Shown: positions 2,972 to 36,548 of the stretch, in pieces
Position numbering within the stretch: position 1 is the stretch's first letter
Layout: each line of letters opens with the position of its first letter
Source of the DNA: a virus
DNA length: 36,548 nt
Virus record (IMG/VR): IMGVR_UViG_3300045988_076321
Direction: 5' to 3' (one strand)
The notes under the pieces: model-generated
What the model was told of the DNA's origin: nothing
Databases searched by the model: none
The model's input: the letters and a program-made list of their open reading frames with translations, nothing else
Translations under genes and position numbers: made by a program

Positions 2972-3005
2972 ACCACACCACCATAAACGAAAGGAATGAC
3001 ACACA

Positions 3006-3902
3006 ATGGCAAGAACTAAAGCTATCAGCCTGATCCAGAGCGGTTCCACGAAGGCCGACCTGGCCGAACTGTCCGGCCTGGTGATCGCGAACATTCAGAA
3101 GGACACCCTGGCCCAGGGCCTGAAGTCCCAGGCCTACACCGGCAACCCCGCCAGCGGTTCCGTCGAGTTCAAGCGTTTCAAGAACAGCGCGTCCCAGCCC
3201 TACGGCACCGCGCGCACCGCGAACAAGGGAACCGCGATCACCGTTCCCCCGACCCCTGTCAACCTGGACACCCACCGCGAGATCGTCGAGGAAGCCGCGA
3301 AGTTCGACCTGGACACCTTCGGCGTGACGAACATCATGGCGCGCCGCGCCGACAACCACGTCGACACCGTGGCCGCGGAGTTCGACGCCGCCTTCTTCCA
3401 GACCGCCTTCGACGCCGGCACCGCCTACACCCCCGACGCCAGCGCCACGATCGAAGAAATCCTGGAAGGCCTGATTCAGAGCGTGGAAACCGTGAAGAAC
3501 GACTATGTCCGCGGCGTTCCCCGTAACCTGATCCGCCTGGTTCTGGACCCCGTCACCTACGGCAAGGCCAGAAACTACCTGGACAAGAACACCAACAACG
3601 CCAACGTCGACACCGCGGCGGAGGACTTCGCCATGTTCCACGGCGTCCGCGTCTATTCCTCCATCAATCTTCCCGTGAAGACCGAAACCGTGGAAGCCAG
3701 CAAGACGAAGACCACCACCTGTCACGGTGTCGCCATGATCGAAGGCGCGATCGCCCAGCCGGCGGTCATTTACCCCTACAAGGAGCCGGAGAAGATCCCC
3801 CTGTCCAACGACTACGGCGTGTCCATGTTCTTCGACTACGGCACGAAGGCCCTGACCCCCGACCTGATCTTCACCTACTCCACCAGCGTCACTTCCGCCT
3901 GA
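3006..3902 (+). CDS. Major capsid protein
   Basis: 298-aa ORF after the scaffold gene, with RBS aaaggaa. Position and size fit PBSX XkdG/SPP1-like coat proteins. Confidence 0.8.
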   Translation: MARTKAISLIQSGSTKADLAELSGLVIANIQKDTLAQGLKSQAYTGNPASGSVEFKRFKNSASQPYGTARTANKGTAITVPPTPVNLDTHREIVEEAAKFDLDTFGVTNIMARRADNHVDTVAAEFDAAFFQTAFDAGTAYTPDASATIEEILEGLIQSVETVKNDYVRGVPRNLIRLVLDPVTYGKARNYLDKNTNNANVDTAAEDFAMFHGVRVYSSINLPVKTETVEASKTKTTTCHGVAMIEGAIAQPAVIYPYKEPEKIPLSNDYGVSMFFDYGTKALTPDLIFTYSTSVTSA

Positions 3903-15577: not shown

Positions 15578-15604
15578 TCATAAATCATTAGGGAACGATC
15601 TGTC

Positions 15605-15709
15605 ACCCCGAACGCCGGCAACGCGAACAACGCGCGCAATGTCAACACGGACGGCAGTCTGAACAACAACAACGCGTACAACGGCAACAACGGCGTCCGG
15701 CCGGATTTG
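15605..15709 (+). repeat. DGR template repeat (TR)
   Basis: Non-coding 105-nt segment between avd and the RT, with 12 in-phase AAC triplets and 1 AAT. It is identical to VR1 and VR2 except at TR adenines. Confidence 0.95.
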
Positions 15710-15880
15710 GTGGAAAACGGGACTGATTAGGGCGGAAAGCCTGAAAACAGAGTATCACCAACAAAGGAGATCGTTTCCTTCCGAAGGGCCGCGACAGTCC
15801 CTTCGGTAAATACATGATTGACGACGAAAGGCCTTCAACAGCGACGGCCGGACTATCAGCGTCAAGGAGGATTTTTCTTT

Positions 15881-17122
15881 ATGAAGGATCAGGGAACGCC
15901 CGCCCATGACTTCGCGTCCGTGACGGACTTCAACAATCTATATCAATCGTTTACAGAAGCGCGCAAAGGGAAACGGTGGAAGTATTCCGTGTGCAAATAT
16001 GAAGCGAATGTCCTGGAAAACCTTCTGTTCATTCAGGTCATGCTTCAGCGCCATAAATACCGCCTGTCCCCGTACAACTGCTTCTTCGTGCATGAACCGA
16101 AAGAACGGCTGATCATGTATAACAGCTTCCGCGACAAGATCGTTCAGCATTGTTTATGTGAACAGGTCCTTGAACCGCTTCTTTCGAAGACATTCATCTA
16201 TGACAACTACGCGAGTCAGAAGGGCAAAGGGACCCACTTCGGCCTTGACCGACTGAAGGCGTTCATGGCGGCCTACTACCGCAAGAACGGCGCCGGCGGC
16301 TGGGTGCTGAAGTGCGACGTCCGCAAGTATTTCTATCGGATCAATCACGACGTTCTGAAGACCCAGCTTCGCCGGCTGATCAAGGACCGCGACGTCCTGT
16401 GGCTTCTGGACATGATCATCGACTCCACGGAGGGACCAGGGATTCCGATCGGGAACCACACTTCACAATGGTTCGCGATCCTCTACCTGTCCGACATGGA
16501 CCACATGATCAAGGAACGTCTGGGAATCAAATATTATGGCCGATACATGGACGACTTCTATTTGATACATGAGGACAGGGCCTATTTGCAGTTCTGCCTG
16601 GAAGAAATCCGCCGGTTCCTGGTCCCCCTGGGCCTGGAACTGAACCAGAAGACGGCCATATTCCCGTTATCCCAGGGGATCGACTTCCTGGGCTTTCGGA
16701 CCTACCTGACGGACAGCGGAAAGGTCGTCCGGAAGGTACGCCGTGAGAGCAAGAACCGGATCAGGCGGAAGATCACGAAGTTCCGCCACCTGGTAGACGA
16801 AGGCCGTGTCGACTTCGACACGGTCCTTCAGTCTTATAATTCCTGGACCGGCCACGCCGAACACGGCAACAGTTATCACCTGATCAGCGAGATCGACGAC
16901 CTGTTCTTCAACCTGTTCAGGAAAGAAATGGAGGGAAAACCCTATGGCGAAATCTCTATCCGCTTTGCCCGTTGGAAGCGTCGTCAAGTCGGCGAACACA
17001 AAGTACAACGGACAGGCGATCAGGTGGATCGTCGGCACACAGGACACGTCCCAGGGCCGAACGGGCCTGGTGACGGAAAAGATGATCACCCTGAAATGCT
17101 TCGACGCGAAGGAGTCCGGTAA
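15881..17122 (+). CDS. DGR reverse transcriptase
   Basis: RBS aaggagg sits 9 nt upstream of ATG 15881. RT motifs include ...GIPIGNHTSQWFAILYL... (DGR-type [IV]GxxxSQ) and ...YGRYMDDFYLIH... (YxDD). The last 179 nt overlap the downstream target gene out of frame. Confidence 0.95.
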   Translation: MKDQGTPAHDFASVTDFNNLYQSFTEARKGKRWKYSVCKYEANVLENLLFIQVMLQRHKYRLSPYNCFFVHEPKERLIMYNSFRDKIVQHCLCEQVLEPLLSKTFIYDNYASQKGKGTHFGLDRLKAFMAAYYRKNGAGGWVLKCDVRKYFYRINHDVLKTQLRRLIKDRDVLWLLDMIIDSTEGPGIPIGNHTSQWFAILYLSDMDHMIKERLGIKYYGRYMDDFYLIHEDRAYLQFCLEEIRRFLVPLGLELNQKTAIFPLSQGIDFLGFRTYLTDSGKVVRKVRRESKNRIRRKITKFRHLVDEGRVDFDTVLQSYNSWTGHAEHGNSYHLISEIDDLFFNLFRKEMEGKPYGEISIRFARWKRRQVGEHKVQRTGDQVDRRHTGHVPGPNGPGDGKDDHPEMLRREGVR

Positions 17123-18650
17123 CAGCAACAGCGACCGCCGGAGTTACGGCAATAACCGTTATTCCGTTTCGAACATCGACAAGTGGCTGAACAGTGCGGC
17201 CGCGTCCTGGTATGCCGCACAGCACGGAGCCGACGCCCCGCCCACGTCCGCGAACTGTTGGAACGGCTATAACCCCTACGACACCGAAGCCGGCTTCCTG
17301 GCGAACTTCGAAGCCGCCTTCCGAAACGCGATCCTGGATTCCACGATCCGCGTCGCGAAGAACACCGTCACCGACGGCGGCGGTTATGAAGACATCGTTC
17401 GACAGGTCTTTTTGCTTTCGAACACGAACGTCGGCCTTTCCAACGAAAACGGCGTGGCCGAAGGTTCCTTGTGGTCCTACTTCAATTCCGCGTCGCGCCG
17501 CCAGTGCTACCCCACGGCGGAAGCCGTCAGCAAGTCCACCTACACCAGTTCCAGCCTGTCCGCTTCTCAATATTGGTGGTGGTGGTTAAGAACCCCGCAC
17601 GCCGGCAACGCGTACTACGCGCGCAATGTCTACACGGACGGCAGTCTGAACAACGGCTACGCGTACAGCGGCCCCGGCGGCGTCCGGCCGGCTTTGTATT
17701 TGGCATCTTCGAATCTGGTATCCGATACAACCGACACAGACGGCGCTTATATCCTTCTGTGGAACCAGCCGCCCACAGCCCCGTCTTCCATTACCTACGG
17801 CACCCCCCAGGCGGGACAGAACCTGACCCTGTCGACCGGCGGATCGACCGATCCGGAGGGCGACGCCATTTCCTACGTCTGGGAACGGAAGGTGGATTCC
17901 GGCGTCTGGACCCAGATCGGGATCACCACCGCGAAGACGATCCAGGACACGGTCCCGTCCAGCGGAACAACCTACTACGCGCGCGTGAAGGCCGTGGACG
18001 CGGTCGGGAATGAATCGGCATATTGCACCGGTTCCGGAAAGGCCATTTCCTACAACACCCCGCCCGTGATCAGCGGTTCCGACCAGAACATGGGCGCGAA
18101 GACCGACCCCTTCACCTACAAATACACCGTCACCGACGCCCAGTCCGCCACCCAGACCATGACCGTGACGGAAACCCTGACCAACGGAACGGAAACCATC
18201 ACCCTTCGCACCTACACGGCCACGGCCGGCGCCCAGAACACCGCCGACCTGTCGTCCGTCTGGATCAGGCTGACCGCGGGGACCCACGTCCTGAAGATCA
18301 CCGCTTCCGACGGCGCCGGTGGAACGGCTGTCCGGAACATCACCTTCAGCCGCACCGTCACCAGGATCGCCGCGGCCCGCGCCTTCAACACCGACGCGAA
18401 GGTCACGAAGGTCTTCGTTTCCCTGTACCCGTCCGACCGTCCGGCCGGTTCCACGCTCCACCTGGAAGTGACGAACAACCCGTTCGACACGAACCCCGTC
18501 TGGGAGGACATCACAGAGAAGGCGAACCGCCTGGTCCACACCTTCGCGAACAGCACCGTCGCAAATGGCTACGGCCTGGGCTATCGGTTCTATCTGCTGA
18601 AGGGAACGGAGGAAATCGAGATCACCCAGGCGACGATCCGTTTCGCCTGA
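16944..18650 (+). CDS. DGR target protein 1: fibre/receptor-binding-like protein with an N-terminal C-type-lectin-fold-like variable domain followed by Ig/FN3-like repeats
   Basis: 568-aa ORF with RBS ggaggga. Contains VR1, which encodes WWWWLRTPHAGNAYYARNVYTDGSLNNGYAYSGPGGVRPALYL. Downstream are beta-rich repeats (PPTAPSSITYGTPQAGQNLTLSTGGSTDPEGDAISYVWERKVD...). Confidence 0.9.
   Translation: MAKSLSALPVGSVVKSANTKYNGQAIRWIVGTQDTSQGRTGLVTEKMITLKCFDAKESGNSNSDRRSYGNNRYSVSNIDKWLNSAAASWYAAQHGADAPPTSANCWNGYNPYDTEAGFLANFEAAFRNAILDSTIRVAKNTVTDGGGYEDIVRQVFLLSNTNVGLSNENGVAEGSLWSYFNSASRRQCYPTAEAVSKSTYTSSSLSASQYWWWWLRTPHAGNAYYARNVYTDGSLNNGYAYSGPGGVRPALYLASSNLVSDTTDTDGAYILLWNQPPTAPSSITYGTPQAGQNLTLSTGGSTDPEGDAISYVWERKVDSGVWTQIGITTAKTIQDTVPSSGTTYYARVKAVDAVGNESAYCTGSGKAISYNTPPVISGSDQNMGAKTDPFTYKYTVTDAQSATQTMTVTETLTNGTETITLRTYTATAGAQNTADLSSVWIRLTAGTHVLKITASDGAGGTAVRNITFSRTVTRIAAARAFNTDAKVTKVFVSLYPSDRPAGSTLHLEVTNNPFDTNPVWEDITEKANRLVHTFANSTVANGYGLGYRFYLLKGTEEIEITQATIRFA
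17592..17696 (+). repeat. DGR variable repeat 1 (VR1)
   Basis: Hand alignment to the TR shows 13 mismatches over 105 nt, all at TR adenines (e.g. AAC to CAC, TAC, GGC, AGC, CCC). Confidence 0.95.
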
Positions 18651-20790: not shown

Positions 20791-21276
20791 ATGGGAATGA
20801 AGCTGGACGGACTGGCGAACTTCGGGAAGGCCCTGGTCGCCCTTCAGGCCGATATACCGGAGATCATGGACAAACTGGTCGTCGGCGAAGGCCGCTTCGC
20901 CCGTGACCAGGCCAGGAAGATTTGCACCGAAGAAAACATCATCAACACCGGCGACTATCGCCGGAACTTCAACAGCAGTTCGAAGGCGATCCGGATCGGG
21001 ACGGCCTACAAGATCGACGTCTTCAACAACCTGGACTATGCGAAGCCCCTGGAATATGGCTTCCGCGGCCACTTCGTCCCTGGACATTGGGACGGGAAGT
21101 CGTTCGTCTACCAGCCGAAGGACCCGCAAGGGGGAATGTTCGTCCATTCCCTGATTCCTGGTCACTACACCCTGGAACGGGCCGTCAACGCCACGAAGCG
21201 CACCCAGAACGCGCGCCTTCAGCGCCGCTTCGAACAGGAACTGAAGAAGCGTGGCTACATGAAGTATTTCAAATAG
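20791..21276 (+). CDS. HK97 gp10-family neck/tail-completion protein (displaced from the neck module)
   Basis: 161 aa. ...INTGDYRRNFN...IDVFNNLDYAKPLEYGFR... matches my recollection of the gp10 family pattern (TG.L..s......YA..vEfG). Confidence 0.6.
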   Translation: MGMKLDGLANFGKALVALQADIPEIMDKLVVGEGRFARDQARKICTEENIINTGDYRRNFNSSSKAIRIGTAYKIDVFNNLDYAKPLEYGFRGHFVPGHWDGKSFVYQPKDPQGGMFVHSLIPGHYTLERAVNATKRTQNARLQRRFEQELKKRGYMKYFK

Positions 21277-21318: not shown

Positions 21319-21666
21319 TCAGAACATCGCGAGTTTGATCGCCTTGAACCGTGTGTCGTCCAGTTCCAGAAGGGACCGCTTCCCGTCCTTGAACTGAATC
21401 GCCACCACATGAACCCCCTTCGTCTTCGCGGTCGCGGCCGCCACGACGCCCAGGGGACCCAGAAGCAGAGCGCCGGCGGCGCCGCGCGCCACGGCGGAAC
21501 CCATGCTTTTCTGGGAATCTTCGTCCACGACTTCAATCTGGTCAATCGTGGAACTGTCCAGCTTCAGATTTTTCATCAGGCCGACGTTCAAAACCGCCTT
21601 CCCGCCTTGCATAATGACCGCTTTGTGTTTATAGTCGCCTTCCAGGACCCAGTTCTTCGCACCCAT
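21319..21666 (-). CDS. Hypothetical protein with a central Gly/Ala-zipper hydrophobic segment; the only minus-strand gene
   Basis: 115-aa ORF with RBS agggagg 7 nt upstream of its ATG on the minus strand. Hydrophobic core GAAGALLLGPLGVVAAATA. Divergent from the XRE gene. Confidence 0.7.
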   Translation of the reverse strand: MGAKNWVLEGDYKHKAVIMQGGKAVLNVGLMKNLKLDSSTIDQIEVVDEDSQKSMGSAVARGAAGALLLGPLGVVAAATAKTKGVHVVAIQFKDGKRSLLELDDTRFKAIKLAMF

Positions 21667-21699: not shown

Positions 21700-21717
21700 T
21701 ATGGGATATTACCATAA
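21700..21717 (+). promoter_or_regulatory. Operator-like repeat copy 1 (tatgggatattaccataa)
   Basis: Exact 18-nt direct repeat of 21752-21769, with a pseudo-palindromic core ATGG-N7-CCAT. It lies in the divergent intergenic region. Confidence 0.6.
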
Positions 21718-21751
21718 GAATATCGGAATCTTATGCTAAAGTCAATTAGAA

Positions 21752-21769
21752 TATGGGATATTACCATAA
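21752..21769 (+). promoter_or_regulatory. Operator-like repeat copy 2 (tatgggatattaccataa)
   Basis: Exact copy 52 nt downstream of copy 1. It overlaps a TAGAAT -10-like hexamer (21747-21752) and sits just upstream of the XRE gene RBS. Confidence 0.6.
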
Positions 21770-21783
21770 CGGGAGGATCAGGC

Positions 21784-22029
21784 GTGAAGAAGTTCGACTA
21801 CAACGGCCGGAAGAATATCTGTGGAAATCGCGTCCGTTGTCTTCGGACGGCGCGACGATGGTCCCAGGCGGCCCTTGCCGCCAAAATGCAGACCCAGGGC
21901 GTAATCATGGAACAGGACGTCGTCAGCAAGATCGAATCCGGCGACCGCCTGGTTACAGACTACGAAGTCCGCGCCTTCGCGGCGGTCTTCGGCGTGGCCT
22001 TTGAAAACCTGATCGAAGACGAAGAATGA
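21784..22029 (+). CDS. XRE-family helix-turn-helix transcriptional regulator (Cro/CI-like)
   Basis: GTG start 8 nt after RBS gggagg. ...GNRVRCLRTARRWSQAALAAKMQTQGVIMEQDVVSKIESGDRLVTDYEVRAFAAVFGV... is the HTH_3 pattern. The upstream in-frame ATG 21733 lacks an RBS and would cover the operator. Confidence 0.8.
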   Translation: MKKFDYNGRKNICGNRVRCLRTARRWSQAALAAKMQTQGVIMEQDVVSKIESGDRLVTDYEVRAFAAVFGVAFENLIEDEE

Positions 22030-22067
22030 ACGGCCTTCCGGATCAGAACCGGAGGGCCGTTTTTTTC
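22030..22067 (+). terminator. Rho-independent terminator
   Basis: acggccttccgg-atcagaa-ccggagggccgt forms a 12-bp stem followed by ttttttt. Confidence 0.85.
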
Positions 22068-22070
22068 TGC

Positions 22071-22099
22071 TTGACAATATACTACCGGTAGTATATAAT
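22071..22099 (+). promoter_or_regulatory. Consensus sigma-70/SigA-type promoter (TTGACA-17 nt-TATAAT)
   Basis: TTGACA at 22071-22076 and TATAAT at 22094-22099 with an exact 17-nt spacer, about 27 nt upstream of the RHH gene. Confidence 0.75.
22077..22096. promoter_or_regulatory. Perfect 20-bp palindromic operator (ATATACTACCGGTAGTATAT) inside the promoter spacer
   Basis: The reverse complement of ATATACTACC is GGTAGTATAT. The palindrome spans the whole spacer and the first 3 nt of the -10 hexamer. Confidence 0.7.
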
Positions 22100-22308: not shown

Positions 22309-22313
22309 ACGCG

Positions 22314-22349
22314 AAGGCCCTGTCCGAAAGGACGGGGCCTTTTATTTTA
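22314..22349 (+). terminator. Rho-independent terminator between the RHH gene and the transposase gene
   Basis: aaggccctgtcc-gaaa-ggacggggcctt forms a 12-bp stem followed by ttattttat. Confidence 0.75.
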
Positions 22350-22369
22350 TACCGAACGGAGGAAACACC

Positions 22370-23416
22370 ATGAAACGTCGCAGATTCAAGCAACTGACCA
22401 GAGCGGATCGCCTGAATATCGAAAAGTATCTTCGCCAGGGTATGACGAAACAGGCCGTCGCCGACGCCCTGGGCGTCAGCCTTCGAACGGTATATTATGA
22501 ACTGAAGCGCGGCCAGTATATCCACACCAATTCCGACCTTACGGAGGAAGTCCGTTATAGCTGTGACGTCGCCGAATCAGTCAAGAAGTACAACGGCACG
22601 AACAAAGGCCCACAGTTAAAGATCGGCAACGACCACGAACTGGCGGCCTACATTGAACGGCGGATCGTGGAAGACGGCTATTCGCCGGCGGCGGTCCTTG
22701 GAGAAATCCGCGTCAAGGGAATGAAGTTCAAGACGTCGATCTGTAAGTCGACACTGTATTCCTATATCCGGAAGGGCGTCTTCCTGACCCTTGAAATGCG
22801 CGACCTTCCCCGTCACGGTAAGAACAAGCGCGGCTACACCCGCACCCACAAGAAGGGCGCCAGGGCGTCCGCCGGAACCAGCATTGAACACCGGCCGGAG
22901 GAAGTGAACGCCAGGACGACCGTCGGTCATTGGGAAATGGACTCCGTCCTGGGAAAGAAGAAGACGAAGCCGGCCCTTCTGGTCCTGTCTGAACGACTGT
23001 CCAGGAAGGAACTGATCATCAAGGTCCAGGATCACACCGCCGCCAGCGTAGTTCGCGCCCTGGACCGCCTGGAACGGAAGATGGGATCGCCGGCCTTCCG
23101 TGCCACCTTCAAGTCGATAACCGTCGACAATGGTTCCGAGTTTGCCGACGTCGACGGCATGGAACGAAGCTGTCGCCGAAAGGGGCCGCGGACGAAGGTC
23201 TATTACTGCCACCCCTATTCTTCCTGGGAACGCGGGACCAACGAAAACACGAACGGCCTGATCCGCCGCTGGTTCCCGAAGGGGACAGACTTCAGCAAAG
23301 TCAGCGTCCAGGAAATCCAGAAGGTCGAAGACTGGCTGAACGCCTATCCCCGCGAAATCCTGGGCTTCCTATCTGCTGACGCGGTCTTCTCCACCGCCTT
23401 CGCGGCCTGTGTCTGA
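22370..23416 (+). CDS. IS30-family DDE transposase/recombinase
   Basis: 348 aa. It has an N-terminal HTH (RADRLNIEKYLRQGMTKQAVADALGVSLRTVYYELKRG) and DDE region motifs HWEMDSV, TVDNGSEF and SSWERGTNENTNGLIRRWFPKGTDF. No flanking inverted repeats could be identified by eye. Confidence 0.9.
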   Translation: MKRRRFKQLTRADRLNIEKYLRQGMTKQAVADALGVSLRTVYYELKRGQYIHTNSDLTEEVRYSCDVAESVKKYNGTNKGPQLKIGNDHELAAYIERRIVEDGYSPAAVLGEIRVKGMKFKTSICKSTLYSYIRKGVFLTLEMRDLPRHGKNKRGYTRTHKKGARASAGTSIEHRPEEVNARTTVGHWEMDSVLGKKKTKPALLVLSERLSRKELIIKVQDHTAASVVRALDRLERKMGSPAFRATFKSITVDNGSEFADVDGMERSCRRKGPRTKVYYCHPYSSWERGTNENTNGLIRRWFPKGTDFSKVSVQEIQKVEDWLNAYPREILGFLSADAVFSTAFAACV

Positions 23417-23445
23417 AACTTTTTTATCTTTTTTGCAAAAATATG

Positions 23446-23474
23446 TTGACTTTTGCGCAGCCCCCGTGTATAGT
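23446..23474 (+). promoter_or_regulatory. Putative early-operon promoter (TTGACT-17 nt-TATAGT)
   Basis: TTGACT at 23446-23451 and TATAGT at 23469-23474 in an AT-rich 133-nt gap. A TTTTGCAAAA palindrome lies at 23431-23440 just upstream. Confidence 0.5.
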
Positions 23475-23549
23475 GTAATTGCATTAAGTCGACAGGCTTT
23501 TTGCAGTTACACTTTTTTTATTTTCTCCCAGAGAAAGGACGGTGAAAAC

Positions 23550-23810
23550 GTGGCTGAATGTTACAAAACGATCGAATATCCGGACCGAAAGGCGATCGCG
23601 GCCCTTTACGCCGCCGGCGCGAAGGCCGGACAGATTGCGAAGGAAATCGGCGTCGCCCCCCGCACCATCTACGCCGAACTGAAGCGCGGCCGCGAAGGGG
23701 ACAAGCTGGACAAGAACTTCCGGCCGTCCTACGACGCAGACCTGGCCCAGAAGCGCGCCCAGGAAAGCCTTCGCCGACGCGGCCGGAGGAAAGGAGGGCC
23801 GGCAGAATGA
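23550..23810 (+). CDS. Small HTH protein resembling the N-terminal DNA-binding domain of IS30 transposases
   Basis: GTG start after RBS gaaaggacgg. PDRKAIAALYAAGAKAGQIAKEIGVAPRTIYAELKRGRE parallels the transposase segment RADRLNIEKYLRQGMTKQAVADALGVSLRTVYYELKRGQ. Confidence 0.6.
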   Translation: MAECYKTIEYPDRKAIAALYAAGAKAGQIAKEIGVAPRTIYAELKRGREGDKLDKNFRPSYDADLAQKRAQESLRRRGRRKGGPAE

Positions 23811-24043
23811 CCCCCAGAGCAAGGCAACGGCGAACGCGCCGGAGAATCCGCAACGCGGCCGGTCTTCTTTCCCTGGTGGCCTTCCTGGCGCTTCTGGGAA
23901 GCGTCGGAGCCGTCGAACAGGACCTGGTCCCCCTTCTCCCTGGCACGATCCGAATGTTCGGCTTCCTTCTGATCTGGGCCGGCCTTCTGGCCGTCGCCGG
24001 AGCCTTCGACACCACCGAAGGAAGGAGGGAACGGAGAAGATGA
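23807..24043 (+). CDS. Small membrane protein (two TM segments, Arg-rich termini)
   Basis: The ATG overlaps the upstream stop (atga), with RBS aaggaggg. TM segments are AAGLLSLVAFLALLGSVGAV and MFGFLLIWAGLLAVAGAF. Confidence 0.5.
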   Translation: MTPRARQRRTRRRIRNAAGLLSLVAFLALLGSVGAVEQDLVPLLPGTIRMFGFLLIWAGLLAVAGAFDTTEGRRERRR

Positions 24044-24198
24044 AGTACACGGCGACCCTGTCGCCCGTTCAGGTCGGACAGGCCGTGAAGGCCCTGGTCC
24101 TTCTGGGCGAAAAGAAGATCACGATCGAAGAAACAGAAAAGGACCGTTTCGTCGTCACCACAACAACCGAAACGGCCCATTCCAAAAAGGTTAAGTGA
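24040..24198 (+). CDS. Hypothetical small protein (52 aa)
   Basis: The ATG overlaps the upstream stop (atga), with RBS ggaaggaggg 10-19 nt upstream. It is below the size cut-off of the ORF track, so I translated it by hand (MKYTATLSPVQVGQAVKALVLLGEKKITIEETEK...). Confidence 0.45.
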   Translation: MKYTATLSPVQVGQAVKALVLLGEKKITIEETEKDRFVVTTTTETAHSKKVK

Positions 24199-24226
24199 AT
24201 CATATCACGGAAAGGAACGGTTTTCA

Positions 24227-24544
24227 ATGCCTAAATTGAATTTTTATGATACGGACGCCGTGAAGGCGTTTCTGCTGAACACCCTGGTCGAGAACAAGGA
24301 AGTCCGCGAAGACGTCGACTTCGAGCGCCGGCAGTCCCAGACCTGGTTCACCCAGTACCAGGCCCAGAAGGGGCGCGCCGAAGCCGCTGAAGCGAAGATC
24401 GCCGCCGCGGTGTCCGTTCTGACCACCCCCATGCCCGCGCGTTCCACCGGCACCGTCACCGCCGAAGACGTCAACCAGGTGATCGCCGACGCCCTGGCCC
24501 TTCTGACTGGGAGCCTGAAGACGGAAGGGGGCGCCGCGAAATGA
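24227..24544 (+). CDS. Hypothetical protein
   Basis: 105-aa ORF with RBS gaaaggaacgg, translationally coupled to the next gene (atga). Confidence 0.55.
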   Translation: MPKLNFYDTDAVKAFLLNTLVENKEVREDVDFERRQSQTWFTQYQAQKGRAEAAEAKIAAAVSVLTTPMPARSTGTVTAEDVNQVIADALALLTGSLKTEGGAAK

Positions 24545-25035
24545 CGAACACCCTGTACGAGATCAGCGCCGACTTCCTGGCCGCCCTGGACGCGATGGAG
24601 GTCGACCCCGACACCGGCGAACTGCTGAACGCCGACCAGCTTGACGCCCTTTCCGCCGCCTTCGACGAAAAGGCCGAAGCGACCGCCCTTTACATCAAGA
24701 ACCTGACCGCCTTTGTCGGCGACGTGAAGGCGGAGGAAGCCGCCCTGGCGGAGCGCCGCAAGACCGCCGAAAAGCGCGTCGAGCGCCTGAAGGACCTTCT
24801 GGCGTCCTCCATGCTGTCCGTCGGCCGCGACAAGGTCGAAACGGCCAGGACGAAGATCGGCTTCCGCAAGTCCACCCAGGTTCAGATTGACGACGAAGGC
24901 GCCCTTCCCCCTGACTTCGTGACGACCACCGTCACCACGAAGCCGGACAAAACGGCAATCAAGAAGGCAATCCAGGCCGGACAGGCCGTCGCCGGCGCTG
25001 TCCTGGTCGAGAATCAGAACCTTCAGATCAAGTAA
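24541..25035 (+). CDS. Siphovirus Gp157-family protein
   Basis: 164 aa. LYEISADFLAALDAME...FDEKAEATALYIKNLTAFVGDVKAEEAALAERRKTAEKRVERLKDLL...KPDKTAIKKAIQAGQAVAGAVLVENQNLQIK follows the Gp157 pattern closely. Confidence 0.8.
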   Translation: MTNTLYEISADFLAALDAMEVDPDTGELLNADQLDALSAAFDEKAEATALYIKNLTAFVGDVKAEEAALAERRKTAEKRVERLKDLLASSMLSVGRDKVETARTKIGFRKSTQVQIDDEGALPPDFVTTTVTTKPDKTAIKKAIQAGQAVAGAVLVENQNLQIK

Positions 25036-27491: not shown

Positions 27492-27896
27492 GTGGAAACC
27501 TGGAAAGTGACGATCCCTGGCCTTTTACCTGGCCTGAATGAGTACATAGACGCGGAACGCGCCGTCAAGGGCAAGTACAAGGCCGCCGCCATGAAGAAAC
27601 AGGCCGAAAATGTGATCGGCTTCATGGTGAAGACCCAGCTTCGCGGTGTCCGCTTCGACCGGCCGGTGATCATTCATTACCGCTGGATCGAGCCGAACCG
27701 CCGCCGCGACAAGGACAACGTCGCCTTCGCGAAGAAGTTCATTCAGGACAGCCTGGTCCACGCCGGCGTCCTGGTGAACGACGGCTGGAACCAGATCGAG
27801 GGCTTCACGGACGACTTCGCCGTGGACCCGAAGAACCCCCGCGTGGAAGTGACTATCGAGATATTCGAAGGAGGAAAACGACATGGCAAATATTAA
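27492..27896 (+). CDS. rusA: RusA-family Holliday junction resolvase
   Basis: 134 aa with a GTG start. ...LPGLNEYI...RRRDKDNVAFAKKFIQDSLVHAGVLVNDGW... shows the RusA catalytic Asp pattern. Confidence 0.75.
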   Translation: METWKVTIPGLLPGLNEYIDAERAVKGKYKAAAMKKQAENVIGFMVKTQLRGVRFDRPVIIHYRWIEPNRRRDKDNVAFAKKFIQDSLVHAGVLVNDGWNQIEGFTDDFAVDPKNPRVEVTIEIFEGGKRHGKY

Positions 27897-28479
27897 GACT
27901 TTGAAGGACCTGACCCCTGGGACCGTCTTCGACGCCGGCCCGATCGACGTCCGCGTCCTGGATCACATGACCAACGGGACGACCCTTCTGATCGCCGACA
28001 AGGCGGTCGCGTGGCGTCCCTTCTCCCTGGAACCCCTGAAGACCCGTCCGGAGGAAGCGCCTACCCCTTACCCGAACGACTTCAGCCTGTCCTATCTGAA
28101 GGACGAACTGAACGGTCCCTTCCTGGCGGCCTTCGACACCGCCGGCGGCCCGATCCGTTCCGCGAACATCGTGGAAGCGAACTGGTCCCTGGCAGATCAC
28201 CGCGGCGGCTTCGGCTACGGCAACACGAAGGCGAAGATCAGCCTTCTTCCCGAAGCCCTGTTCCTGAAGTACAAGTCCCTTCTGGCCCTGGACGACTGGT
28301 GGTGGCTTGCGACCCCGTACGCCGGCCACGCGCGCATCGCGCGCACTGTCATCACGGACGGCAGTCTGTACGGCTACTACGCGTACCTCGGCTACCGCGG
28401 CGTCCGGCCGGCTTTCTTCGCGGAATCTGGAATCATTCTGGAATCCGACGGCGGCGAAGCGGTGGAAGCCCATGAATAA
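27883..28479 (+). CDS. DGR target protein 2: stand-alone variable ligand-binding domain protein (remote target)
   Basis: 198-aa ORF overlapping the rusA end by 14 nt. Its C-terminal part carries VR2 (DDWWWLATPYAGHARIARTVITDGSLYGYYAYLGYRGVRPAFFAES). The fold signature (W..L..P...GVRPA) is shared with target 1. No N-terminal signal or TM segment is visible. Confidence 0.9.
   Translation: MANIKTLKDLTPGTVFDAGPIDVRVLDHMTNGTTLLIADKAVAWRPFSLEPLKTRPEEAPTPYPNDFSLSYLKDELNGPFLAAFDTAGGPIRSANIVEANWSLADHRGGFGYGNTKAKISLLPEALFLKYKSLLALDDWWWLATPYAGHARIARTVITDGSLYGYYAYLGYRGVRPAFFAESGIILESDGGEAVEAHE
28312..28415 (+). repeat. DGR variable repeat 2 (VR2)
   Basis: Hand alignment to TR 15605-15708 shows 18 mismatches, all at TR adenines. 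The first non-A mismatch (G vs C) is at 28416 and marks the repeat boundary. Confidence 0.95.
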
Positions 28480-28726
28480 TCCCGCGACGACCCGCGAGTG
28501 GATCGGCCGGCGGCGCCTTCGGGCGTCCGTCGACCGGACCCTGGGCGTGAAGGTGCCGAAGGTGGTCTTCGACGAAGCGGAAGCATACGCCAGACGGAAG
28601 ATGGCCTTCCAGAACGAAGTCCTGGGCCTGGACCGCGGCGACGAATACTTGGAACTTCTGATCCCCGACGTGATCCGCGAAATGGTCCTGGCGGCCAGGT
28701 ATGACGGAAGGAGGGCGACGGCGTGA
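28472..28726 (+). CDS. Hypothetical protein
   Basis: 84-aa ORF. Its ATG overlaps the end of target 2, and its stop overlaps the methyltransferase GTG (gtga). Confidence 0.5.
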   Translation: MNNPATTREWIGRRRLRASVDRTLGVKVPKVVFDEAEAYARRKMAFQNEVLGLDRGDEYLELLIPDVIREMVLAARYDGRRATA

Positions 28727-30039
28727 AATTACTGATCGGCGGTTCGCCGTGTACGCATTGGAGTATAGCCCAGACGAAGCACAGAGAAACGGAGCCTTCC
28801 GGCCTGGGCTGGGAATTGTTCCTGAACTATCTGATCGCAAGGGAAAAATATCGTCCGGACTATTTCCTGTATGAAAACAACAAGTCTATGTCGCCGGCGA
28901 TCAGGGCGCAGATCACCCGCGAACTGGGTGTCGAACCGATCCTGATCAATTCGGCCCTTGTCAGCGCCCAGAGTCGACAGCGGCTATACTGGACGAATAT
29001 TCCTGGCGTGGAGCAACCGGAGGATCGCGGAATCCTGGTCCGCGACATACTGGAAAGCGGTGTCTGCTGGAAAGATAAGGCGTACACGCTGAAAGCGTCA
29101 GCGGGCCACCAGAACGGCCCTTCGAACATTATCCGGAGCATTGAAACCAACGGCCATTTCTCCGCAAATGGCGTGGCGGAACCCGTCAACATCACCGCAG
29201 ACGGGAAGGCGCAATGTTTACGGGCTACTTATTACAAGGACGGGATTCGAAATCTTGTCGGGAACACGATTGACCGGAAGACCTGTGTCGCCGTCCGTGT
29301 CGGTGATATGCCAAACGCCGAAGGCGAAATCATCGGGAGCCAGAGCAAGCGCGTTTACAGCGTCGACGGAAAGTCTGTTCCGTTACAGGCACGGCCGAAC
29401 GGCGGCGGAGCGGACGGAGCGGCGACCGGCCTATATGCGGTTCCGACCGGTATCGCATGGCGGGGCCGTGACGGTTCTTCTTCCTACGAAGCCCGAAGCG
29501 ATCAGAAGACGAACGCCGTGACGGCGGACGGCCACCAAAGCCGCATGGTGATTATAGCCGCTGGCGGAAAGGCACACCCCGTCTATTCCGTCACGGACGG
29601 ATTTATCGAAATCAAGGGGAAGAAGTACCCGATCCGGCTTCCGGACGGCCTGTATATTATCCGCAAACTGACCGTCAACGAATGCAAACGCCTTCAAACG
29701 GTTCCGGAATGGTATCGCTTCAGCGTAAGTCAGACCCAGGCCTACAAAATGTTGGGGAACGGCTGGACGGTGGACGTGATCAGCCATATTTTATCCTATT
29801 GCCCAGGCCTGACGGAAACGCCGACCGAAGTATTTTCCATGTATGACGGAATGTCGTGCGGGCGACTGGCCCTTCTGAAGCTGGGTGTGAATATCACAAA
29901 TTACTATGCGACGGAGATCGACAAATACGCGATCGCAACCACACAGGAAAATTTCCCCGATACGGTCCAGTTAGGGGACGCCTTCCAGGTTCGGGAAGAC
30001 GGTTGGACACTTCAGAAAGGCGGTGCAATCAATGAGTGA
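28723..30039 (+). CDS. DNA (cytosine-5) methyltransferase with apparently permuted motif order (IV-X followed by I-III)
   Basis: 438 aa with RBS ggaaggaggg. The motifs, read in order, are as follows:
- IV: LIGGSPCTHWS
- VI: FLYENNKS
- VIII: SAQSRQRLYW
- IX: RKLTVNECKRLQTVPEWY
- X: YKMLGNGWTVDVI
- I: VFSMYDGMSCGRLAL
- II: YYATEIDKYA
- III: QLGDAFQV. Confidence 0.75.
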   Translation: MKLLIGGSPCTHWSIAQTKHRETEPSGLGWELFLNYLIAREKYRPDYFLYENNKSMSPAIRAQITRELGVEPILINSALVSAQSRQRLYWTNIPGVEQPEDRGILVRDILESGVCWKDKAYTLKASAGHQNGPSNIIRSIETNGHFSANGVAEPVNITADGKAQCLRATYYKDGIRNLVGNTIDRKTCVAVRVGDMPNAEGEIIGSQSKRVYSVDGKSVPLQARPNGGGADGAATGLYAVPTGIAWRGRDGSSSYEARSDQKTNAVTADGHQSRMVIIAAGGKAHPVYSVTDGFIEIKGKKYPIRLPDGLYIIRKLTVNECKRLQTVPEWYRFSVSQTQAYKMLGNGWTVDVISHILSYCPGLTETPTEVFSMYDGMSCGRLALLKLGVNITNYYATEIDKYAIATTQENFPDTVQLGDAFQVREDGWTLQKGGAINE

Positions 30040-35363: not shown

Positions 35364-36548
35364 ATGGCCGAATATTCCGTCATGGACCGGATCAATATGA
35401 TCATTTCCGATCCGGACCACGCGACAATGACCCTGGCCCAGATCGTGACCGAAGAAATCAGGGAGTTTAAGGCATCCGAGCAGTACGCGAACATGATCCA
35501 GGCCGAAGCCTATTACAGAAACCGGACCGACGTCCAGCGGAAGACGAACGACGTCGCGAACCGGTCGAATACCAGGATCGAACACCCGATTCTGAAGAAG
35601 CTGGTCGACCAGAAGGCGAACTACCTTCTGGGGAAGCCCTTCACCGTGGACACGAAGAACAGTTCCTACGGCGACGCCCTGAACGACGTCTTCGACCAGA
35701 CCTTCCGCCGGAAGATTAAGTCCCTGGGGAAGGGCGCTGTGAAGTCCGGTATTGCATGGCTTCAGCCCTACTTCGACGACGGGAAACTGGCCTTCATGCG
35801 AATCCCGTCCGCGGAACTGGTCCCGATCTGGCGCGACGCAGAGCGAACGAAGCTGGACGCCTTCATTCGCTTCTATGACCAGGTGATCTACATCGGCACC
35901 AGGAAGCACACGATCACCCACGCCGAACTGTGGTGGACCGGCGGCGTCAAGTATTTCAAAACCGACGCCTTCGCCGGCACCATCGCCGGCGACTTCATCG
36001 TCGACACCGAACACGGCGACGAAGCCAACGACTACACCGAACCCCATTTCACCGTCGGCGACAAGGCCTACAACTGGGACACCGTCCCGATCGTCTGGCT
36101 GAAGTACAACGAAGAGGAACTTCCCCTTTGCTACTTCATCAAGGACCTGATCGACGACATCAACTGGCAGACGTCCGTGACCGCCGACGTTCTCCGCGAC
36201 GTGGCGAAGTTCATCTATATCCTGAAGAACTACGGCGGCCAGGACTTGGGCGAGTTCATCAAGGACCTGAAGGAACACATGGCGATCAAAGTCACCACCG
36301 ACGGCGGTGTGGACAAACTTCAGGCCGATCTTAATATCGACGCCGTCATGGCCTTCCTGGATAAACAGCGACGCGACGTCTACGACTTCGCCGCGGCCGT
36401 CGACACGAAGGACCCTGACCTGGGGAACGCGTCCGGAACGGCGATCAATTTCCGCTATATGGACCTGTCGTCCGACTGCGATTCCCTGGCGACCGAACTG
36501 AAGGACACCTTCCAGCGCCTGAAACTGTTCATCGACGTTTACCTTCAG
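35364..36548 (+). CDS. Portal protein (SPP1 gp6-like), N-terminal part; continues at 142..450 of the window through the circular junction
   Basis: ATG 35364 lies after RBS aagggag. I translated by hand and the frame is open to the window end. The total reconstructed length is about 497 aa. Confidence 0.85.
   Translation, partial: MAEYSVMDRINMIISDPDHATMTLAQIVTEEIREFKASEQYANMIQAEAYYRNRTDVQRKTNDVANRSNTRIEHPILKKLVDQKANYLLGKPFTVDTKNSSYGDALNDVFDQTFRRKIKSLGKGAVKSGIAWLQPYFDDGKLAFMRIPSAELVPIWRDAERTKLDAFIRFYDQVIYIGTRKHTITHAELWWTGGVKYFKTDAFAGTIAGDFIVDTEHGDEANDYTEPHFTVGDKAYNWDTVPIVWLKYNEEELPLCYFIKDLIDDINWQTSVTADVLRDVAKFIYILKNYGGQDLGEFIKDLKEHMAIKVTTDGGVDKLQADLNIDAVMAFLDKQRRDVYDFAAAVDTKDPDLGNASGTAINFRYMDLSSDCDSLATELKDTFQRLKLFIDVYLQ
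36408..36548. repeat. Terminal direct repeat, identical to 1..141
   Basis: Same 141-nt string as the window start. Confidence 0.9.

Follow-up and report, generated by a model that had tools for sequence, protein, structure and literature searches.

A temperate phage of Lawsonibacter and its relatives that probably moves as a single 36.4-kb IS30-type transposon

How does a temperate phage that has neither a tyrosine nor a serine integrase enter the chromosome of its host? This question is raised by the virus record IMGVR_UViG_3300045988_076321 (36,548 nt; the whole stretch that was analysed is called the window below), in which the gene for an IS30-family DDE transposase lies between regulator genes and the early operon. 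A preliminary description of the window had suggested that this enzyme may be the integrase of the phage rather than the product of a hitch-hiking insertion sequence (IS), with a non-integrating phage as the alternative. Using comparative sequence analysis throughout, we arrived at a reading that we regard as very probable: the window represents, in circular form, a temperate phage with a contractile tail whose hosts are Lawsonibacter and related Oscillospiraceae, and the whole phage constitutes one IS30-type transposon of 36.4 kb. The contig bears an exact repeat of 141 nt at its ends (1-141 = 36408-36548) and is therefore circularly closed, with a unit of 36,407 bp. The phage form is known here from this circular contig and from related contigs found in virus collections.

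Ends and integrated copies of the phage

The transposase is a full-length member of its family, as had been recognized from its translation. It scores 245.5 bits (cut-off 80) against the NCBIfam model NF033563 'IS30 family transposase', covering model positions 2-266 of 267, and Pfam places an HTH_38 domain at residues 6-48 and the rve core at residues 186-272. The acidic residues D, D and E are intact (D191 in HWEMD, D253 in VDNGSEF and E292 in NENTNG), an assignment made by motif with no structure used. The enzyme shares 47-66% identity with many phage-borne homologues and 53.5% with that of phage FP_Lagaffe. Apart from this transposase no integrase came to light. Six-frame searches with PF00589 (tyrosine) and PF00239 (serine) gave no match in the prophage copies of the bacterial genomes G001 and G083 or in three related virus records; as a control, both host genomes yielded 16-36 matches each elsewhere, and the control genomes responded. 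Pfam scans of about 40 open reading frames (ORFs) of the window likewise detected no tyrosine or serine recombinase, in agreement with what had first been noticed, and none of the window proteins scanned matched MuA or MuB. A classical integrase is thus absent from the prophage copies; relatives with the same backbone and such an integrase were not searched for.

Integrated copies define the ends of the mobile unit. Genome G001 (3.16 Mb) harbours a collinear 36-kb prophage, 96-98% identical to the window, that is broken exactly at 23459/23460. Its position 3120256 onward corresponds to window 23460 onward, and the match rounds the circle until it stops at 23459, which equals 3156307, the last base of the contig. 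The first bases of the same contig, CTTTTTTCAGAAT, repeat the 13 bases that precede the left end of the prophage. In the related complete genome G101 the site is empty: the two flanks, 95% identical, adjoin each other, and CACTTTTTTCAGAAT occurs once. From the repeated CTTTTTTCAGAAT and the single copy in G101 it follows that G001 carries a 15-bp target duplication that is not part of the phage circle. Such a duplication marks transposition and not conservative recombination between att sites. We considered an assembly artefact as its source and rejected it, as G101 has the 15-mer only once, and as G083 and prophages of a more distant family (see below) have both ends on one contig. It is important to note that the 3.16-Mb contig G001:C1 is broken exactly at the right end of the prophage plus the dinucleotide CA, probably because the reads came from a mixture of circular and integrated forms.

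Further sites show the same arrangement. Lawsonibacter sp. LCP25S3_E2 (G083) has both prophage ends on one contig, with the duplication AAAATTTTTCCTGC, and a third site, each side of which is found in a different record (L069 and L112), has the duplication TATAATCTTCAAATT. The prophages of G001 and G083 begin at window position 23460 and end at 23457, with a gene for a small helix-turn-helix (HTH) protein first and the transposase gene last and facing outward. Five genomes with a 64%-identical transposase were also searched, and paired ends were recovered in four of them. All four prophages of this 64% family again place the HTH gene first and the transposase gene last, pointing outward, and are bordered by 14-15-bp duplications; in two of the four, both ends lie on one contig, about 35 kb apart. 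In total, a target duplication of 14-15 bp was found in seven paired sites, where 2-3 bp had been anticipated, and 27 different left flanks testify to at least 27 different integration sites. With the G001 prophage bounded by window positions 23460 and 23457/23459, what moves is the entire phage and not an IS. The prophage form and its junctions, which the preliminary description had proposed to look for, have thereby been found in G001 and G083, with the empty site of G101 disclosing the 15-bp duplication, and the notion of a non-integrating phage is excluded by these copies.

The right end is identical up to ...TTGACTTTTGCG (23457) in all loci whose transposase is at least 94% identical, and also in the remnant L061. 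One locus (L070) has a single substitution in the inner part of the right end, and another (L044, 90% identical) ends in ...TTTTGTG. Beyond 23457 the flanking sequence differs in every locus. On the other side, the sequence from G23460 onward is common to 27 integrated left junctions and 10 circles. Since the preceding base varies in integrated copies, G23460 is the left end; one copy (L104) has C in place of this first base. The T that precedes GCCCCC in G001 and G083 was entertained as the first base of the left end, but it was rejected as this base varies in 25 further junctions. In the 64% family, on the other hand, a T appears to be part of the end, since its motif ATTGCAAA is then equidistant from both tips.

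Scanning metagenome and virus contigs for the left end yielded 25 integrated left junctions and eight joined-end forms; the window and one contig of a metagenome-assembled genome (MAG) bring the joined ends to ten. In all ten, the spacer between the abutted ends measures exactly 2 bp, and it varies among six dinucleotides (CA twice, TT, AA, TG three times, CC, and GT twice). A variable 2-bp spacer at joined ends is a hallmark of IS30, and the circular-junction sequence for which a search had been advised is thus at hand. In the window the spacer is CA, and CA also comes directly after the right end in G001. The virus-contig scan gave no joined-end forms of the 64% family, and scanning virus contigs for additional right-end copies added no loci to the known set. 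Two loci deserve a separate remark. The MAG contig (L042, SFII01000003.1, 34 kb, labelled Coriobacteriaceae) is a joined-end form whose spacer is CA, as in the window. It probably derives from free phage DNA that was binned with an unrelated MAG, which makes its host label untrustworthy. The remnant L061 in Lawsonibacter sp. LCP25S3_F5 (JBQKKA010000002.1, locus 3001-3213) comprises only the last 71 codons of a related transposase (86% identity); an intact right end and host DNA come next, and the locus looks as if a decayed or truncated prophage had left its right end behind alone.

Target choice and a predicted junction promoter

Twenty-six independent left flanks were aligned on the phage end. 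Flank position 27 is T in every one of them, and on the strand reading away from the phage the consensus is TTGaca at positions 27-32 and TGnTAnAAT at 47-55. With a simple promoter score, the best -35 start falls at position 26 or 27 in 23 of the 26 sites, in one orientation. At that register 19 sites reach at least 8 of 12 promoter matches, compared with 0.35% of background positions (binomial P about 1e-41, a rough estimate). Measured from the -35 box of a host promoter of the sigma-A type, the left end lies 25-26 bp upstream, and the near edge of the duplication is 10-11 bp from the box. The promoter targeted in G001 precedes tRNA-Ser(GGA). The fixed distance is kept in all four sites of the 64% family. 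Positions 1-26 of the flanks contain 64-65% A+T as against 51% farther out, and the duplicated 14-15 bp cover the A+T-rich region of UP elements. Judged by these flanks, the phage is class-specific and not site-specific in its choice of target. Literature searches retrieved no case of promoter targeting by the IS30 family.

About one third of the targeted -35 regions (flank positions 26-38) read CTTGACTTTT or CTTGCTTTTT and so resemble the tip of the right end, GTTGACTTTTGCG. By analogy with IS30, which targets its own inverted repeats, one DNA-binding domain might read both the phage end and the target.

When the ends are joined, they form a predicted promoter at 23446-23474 (TTGACT-17-TATAGT), which as a sequence match agrees with the consensus at 10 of 12 positions. 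Its -35 hexamer lies 6 nt from the right tip and its -10 hexamer 9 nt from the left tip, the 17-nt spacing including the 2-bp spacer, and its direction is towards the HTH gene and the early operon. Once the phage is integrated, host DNA takes the place of the -35 hexamer; the corresponding bases in G001 are ACTTTT, with none of six consensus matches.

The first gene behind this promoter codes for an 86-aa protein that matches Pfam HTH_38 (E 5.6e-9) and, in BLASTP, residues 30-49 of the transposase (E 2e-5). Its kinship with the N-terminal HTH of the transposase, claimed from the beginning, is borne out by both matches. The start of its ORF had to be corrected, however. It had been placed at 23409, whereas the conserved start is the GTG at 23550, preceded by AAAGGA and 90 nt inside the left end. 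A start at 23409 is impossible because the element ends (23457/23460) and the promoter 23446-23474 would lie within the gene, and because prophages have host DNA instead of 23409-23459. Of the five prophages of the 64% family that were searched, four have a homologue with 55-57% identity at the left end; in the fifth genome (G091) a homologue of 42% identity is found on a different contig.

Together, these features suggest the following cycle. The transposase would cut the 3' ends at the junction and paste the circle into the target with a stagger of 14-15 bp, much as an IS30 minicircle is inserted. Copy-out from the prophage in the manner of IS30 would regenerate the circle, taking along two flanking bases as the spacer. 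Only the joined ends would drive the early operon, with the -35 box supplied by the right end and the -10 box by the left end. Integration would thus split the promoter and leave the lytic genes silent, and circle formation would re-arm the early operon. A ribbon-helix-helix (RHH) regulator and a terminator upstream of the transposase gene would throttle the supply of the enzyme. The HTH-only protein, for which a role as regulator or inhibitor is plausible, could bind the TTGCA motifs shared by the ends and thereby either autoregulate the junction or inhibit the transposase. That an IS30-family transposase integrates under the guidance of promoters, either through an HTH resembling sigma region 4 or through bound RNA polymerase, and that the recombinase itself acts as the lysis-lysogeny switch by way of the split early promoter, is a proposal we make tentatively and with somewhat more doubt than belief.

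The region upstream of the transposase gene provides candidates for the control of this supply (Table 1). The operator-like site TATGGGATATTACCATAA has two matches in the window where none is expected, and a perfect 20-bp palindrome, ATATACTACCGGTAGTATAT (22077-22096), unique in the window, fills the spacer and the -10 region of the consensus promoter ahead of the RHH gene. The palindrome and the 18-bp repeats are likely the operators of the RHH and XRE-type regulators. The RHH protein probably regulates its own promoter and hence the supply of transposase. Expression of the transposase gene by read-through would fit the predicted terminator, already recognized in the preliminary description, and the fact that no promoter is predicted for the gene itself. 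The divergent 115-aa ORF may be part of the lysogeny switch. Neither the 18-bp site nor the palindrome recurs near the end junction when up to three mismatches are allowed.

Table 1. Features around the joined phage ends, with positions in the window
Feature	Position	Strand	Remarks
ORF of 115 aa, divergent from the XRE-type regulator	21319..21666	-	no Pfam match; promoter-like minus-strand site 21745-21717
Operator-like site of 18 bp, TATGGGATATTACCATAA, two exact copies	21700-21717 and 21752-21769	+	in the divergent regulatory region
XRE-family HTH regulator, candidate repressor	21733..22029	+	Pfam HTH_31 (E 1.1e-7) and HTH_3; followed by terminator 22028-22062
Consensus promoter TTGACA-17-TATAAT	22071..22099	+	12/12 matches; heads the RHH gene and, by read-through, the transposase gene
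RHH (CopG-like) protein, 60 aa	22126..22308	+	Pfam RHH_1 (E 6e-4), weak, under the gathering score
Predicted terminator between RHH and transposase genes	22313-22342	+	
IS30-family DDE transposase, probably serving as phage integrase	22370..23416	+	348 aa; last prophage gene, outward-facing
Right end (...TTTTTTGCAAAAATATGTTGACTTTTGCG)	23417..23457	+	-35 hexamer TTGACT 23446-23451; TGCAA core 23434-23438, 20-24 nt from the tip
Spacer CA, 2 bp between the abutted ends of the circle	23458..23459	.	varies between circles
Left end (GCCCCCGTGTATAGTGTAATTGCATT...)	23460..23505	+	-10 hexamer TATAGT 23469-23474; TTGCA core 23479-23483, 20-24 nt from the tip
HTH_38-only paralogue of the transposase N-terminus, 86 aa	23550..23810	+	first gene of the prophage and of the early operon
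Start of the early and replication operon	23807..25035	+	small ORFs 23807-24043, 24040-24198 and 24227-24544, then Gp157 24541-25035; downstream of the junction promoter

Competing explanations and points of doubt

Could the transposase gene belong to an ordinary IS30-family IS that landed between the lysogeny and early modules and has no role in the life cycle? It is indeed a standard full-length match to the family, and phages do carry IS elements, e.g. IS983 in phage bIL311. However, no IS-sized repeats or duplication bracket the gene, and the sole mobile ends are those of the 36-kb phage. Reading the 60 nt upstream of the gene (22309-22369) revealed no end motif of the TTGCA or TTGACTTTT type, on which ground a simple IS insertion was rejected. 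The earlier statement that terminal inverted repeats are missing from both flanks holds insofar as no IS-sized pair encloses the gene; the true right end of the element lies only 41 nt past the stop codon. As position and layout of the gene are also kept in phages with transposases of merely 53-64% identity, and as no other integrase was found, an ordinary IS is scarcely credible; IS ends with a duplication around the transposase gene alone, which would have spoken for it, never appeared. A second possibility is that an intact and a decayed IS30 copy flank the phage and mobilize it as a composite transposon instead of a single expanded IS. IS30-related coding sequence is present at both ends, and similar phages have been described in such terms (PMC12823448). 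Both models predict the same chemistry at the outer ends, but the left 'copy' is nothing but an 86-aa HTH gene, and no inner end sequence of the TTGCA or TTGACTTTT type was seen downstream of it or in 22309-22369. Moreover, the HTH gene is situated behind the left end and the junction promoter, where the N-terminus of an IS30 transposase would be, a position that fits one IS with its interior filled by a phage. We therefore consider a composite transposon quite improbable.

The DDE chemistry, the many integration sites and the virion genes of Mu-F-like and Mu Gp48-like type might also suggest a Mu-like phage, which would transpose replicatively in repeated rounds, use its transposase as replication enzyme and be packaged from integrated copies. 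Such a life style appears extremely unlikely in view of the clean circular or concatemeric junctions with 2-bp spacers in ten independent assemblies. In addition, the genome encodes replication proteins of its own (Gp157, a DnaC-like loader, SSB and RusA) as well as a small and a large terminase, the contig ends overlap each other with no host DNA there, and a cos site has been reported for Lagaffe (PMC5883640). As for the preference for promoters, it could reflect survivorship, i.e. random insertions of which only the harmless, AT-rich upstream ones persist, with no enzymatic targeting. Intergenic and AT-rich targets are what one would expect if gene disruption is selected against. Yet selection cannot account for a fixed distance that varies by only about 1 bp, or for the same orientation at all 26 sites, and all four sites of the 64%-identical family follow the same rule. 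Mutator-like elements of the TnGBS/ISLre2 type, which insert 15-17 bp upstream of -35 boxes (PMC3942029), represent an experimentally known analogue of targeting. Survivorship is thus very unlikely to account for the pattern.

The phage as one IS30-type transposon, with the transposase as its integrase, remains the preferred reading, and the assumption that the enzyme is no hitch-hiker finds support in the prophage junctions, the 15-bp duplication and the 2-bp spacer of the circles. Several observations weigh against it or against parts of it. The right junction of G001 is not contiguous, as the contig ends there, and its duplication is deduced from circular closure and the empty site of G101; in G083 the two copies of the duplication differ at the base next to the left end. 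A duplication of 14-15 bp departs from the 2 bp of IS30. The ends are asymmetric, and the tip-to-tip inverted-repeat match is weak (11 of 30 positions), with the TTGCA block alone being equidistant from the tips, which is unlike canonical IS30. A second and better copy of the right-end motif is found deeper within the left end, where the inner site AAGTCGACAGGCTTTTTGCA (23486-23505) equals the right end at 16 of 20 positions, counted by eye. In the 64% family, 16 of 30 positions match, and ATTGCAAA is found 19-26 nt from the tips. The second D and the E of the transposase are 38 residues apart, compared with 33 in canonical IS30. While the identity of the window spacer with the CA that follows the right end in G001 fits a spacer derived from the flank, it could be due to chance (1 in 16). 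With regard to the junction promoter, other early promoters or repressor sites could exist, as the exclusion covers the two operator motifs (up to three mismatches). Finally, catalysis by the transposase, the copy-out step and the functions suggested above for the RHH and HTH proteins are deductions from sequence.

Gene content, relatives and implications

Apart from its ends the element is a complete tailed phage. According to Pfam, virion and lysis genes encode a small and a large terminase, an SPP1-type portal, a Mu-F-like protein, a scaffold, a sheath, baseplate J and an amidase endolysin; a Mu Gp48-like virion gene is also present. An ORF for a component resembling the HK97 gp10 tail protein (20791-21276; a weak match, E 6e-4) follows the endolysin gene, apart from the other tail genes. 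The Gp157 gene of the early operon matches Sipho_Gp157 (E 3e-44), and genes for a DnaC/IstB-like ATPase, RusA, a C5 methylase and SSB are located farther downstream. The sole large mismatch between the window and the G001 prophage is a segment of 1.3 kb (28727-30032) that corresponds to about 0.5 kb in G001:C1:3125519-3126057. Judged by this difference in length, it is a swapped cassette; in the window it contains the C5 cytosine methylase gene (28723-30039).

The window also contains a diversity-generating retroelement. Its reverse transcriptase gene (RVT_1, 15818-17122) is preceded by the template repeat (about 15606-15707, within 15590-15721), and two variable repeats (17577-17708 and 28297-28428) differ from the template at template adenines. 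The first one lies within the gene for a DUF6273 protein (16944-18650) and the second one, in the early region, at the 3' end of another DUF6273-domain gene (27883-28479). It is unusual for two target genes to be separated by 10 kb; Lagaffe has a diversity-generating retroelement, too.

Phages of this class have already been published (Lagaffe in 2018, IScream in Nature 2025), and the window is another member. The IScream phages (Wirbel, Hickey et al., Nature 2025, PMC12823448) are prophages that lack an integrase and have an outward-facing IS30 at one end and a truncated, inward-facing IS30 at the other. A gut virus catalogue yielded 1,780 candidates, and in Blautia hansenii both circles and DNase-protected DNA were detected (PMC12823448). 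The same paper describes a single phage sub-clade among the IS30 proteins. The features by which these prophages are recognized, namely an origin from gut Clostridia, the lack of an annotated integrase, the gene order of tailed phages, circles, and several host contexts, are each found for the window. It combines phage structural genes and the lack of a tyrosine or serine integrase with a full-length outward IS30 gene at the right end and, at the left end, an inward HTH_38-only gene of 86 aa without a catalytic domain. This HTH gene (23550..23810) corresponds to the 'inward, truncated IS30' of the IScream phages. Whereas the IScream paper frames the phages as composite-transposon-like, the ends of the window look like those of one expanded IS. 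The text of that paper (PMC12823448) makes no mention of target sites, inverted repeats or promoters and uses 'duplication' for structural variants only.

For FP_Lagaffe (Cornuault et al. 2018, PMC5883640; NC_047911), an IS30-family transposase was named as the integrase of a prophage flanked by direct repeats. Lagaffe resembles the window in its contractile tail, in the retroelement, in the transposase and in the local order of regulators, transposase gene, CTTGACTTTT, 16 nt, TAATAT and HTH gene. It differs in size (48.2 kb versus 36.4 kb), and the hosts of the published phages are different (F. prausnitzii and Blautia hansenii); the sequence comparison covers the transposase locus. Promoter targeting, the long duplication and the split promoter were found in neither the Lagaffe nor the IScream paper and are new in relation to both.

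At 36 kb and with weak inverted repeats, the element differs from the IS30 of Escherichia coli, which is 1.2 kb long. Kiss and colleagues are said to have substituted the IS30 transposase for lambda integrase in 2003. IS30 moves by copy-out-paste-in via circles in which its ends are abutted with 2 bp from the flanking DNA (Olasz, Kiss, Szabo; PMC9333248), and the joined ends constitute both a strong promoter and the substrate for insertion (PMC9333248). The phage shares the transposase family, the 2-bp-abutted circle and the promoter across the joined ends. On the other hand, IS30 generates 2-bp duplications at palindromic hot spots or its own ends, in contrast to the 14-15 bp in promoter-upstream DNA found here. 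Furthermore, the junction promoter of IS30 drives the transposase gene, whereas that of the window would drive the HTH-only paralogue and the early operon, with the transposase gene at the far end.

A closer parallel in target choice is offered by the TnGBS conjugative transposons and ISLre2/ISKra4, whose Mutator-like enzymes insert at the distance from the -35 box given above (Brochet 2009; Guerillot 2014, PMC3942029), and for which an asymmetry of the ends has been proposed to fix the orientation (PMC3942029). In TnGBS as in the window, a DDE transposase replaces the integrase of a large element, and insertion is oriented and at a fixed distance from a sigma-A -35 box. The TnGBS enzyme, however, is a Mutator-like (p-MULT) transposase with a conjugative cargo, and the window is a phage with an enzyme of the IS30 family, so that the resemblance is one of behaviour and not of family membership.

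Phage Mu transposes with the help of MuA and MuB and leaves a duplication of 5 bp; transposition is also its mode of replication, and its packaged genomes end in host DNA. The Mu-like phage Mushu shows these features (PMC5883640). With Mu the window has in common that it is a tailed temperate phage with a DDE enzyme and many integration sites, but it differs from Mu by its circular junctions, its own replication and terminase genes and the family of its enzyme.

What the window adds to this class of phages is anatomy: the exact ends, an invariant 2-bp spacer, a 14-15-bp target duplication, a rule of insertion upstream of promoters, and a predicted early promoter present only in the joined ends. 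The invariant spacer links these phages mechanistically to IS30 minicircles, and the insertion rule is convergent with that of the TnGBS elements. If the rule is enzymatic, it accounts for integration in hosts of different families, for the rarity of broken genes, and for the failure of prophage-boundary and att-site predictors to register these phages. A universal signal in place of an att site would, if true, also explain the unusually broad host range reported for them. The transposase would then also offer a compact promoter-seeking DNA-insertion enzyme for study.

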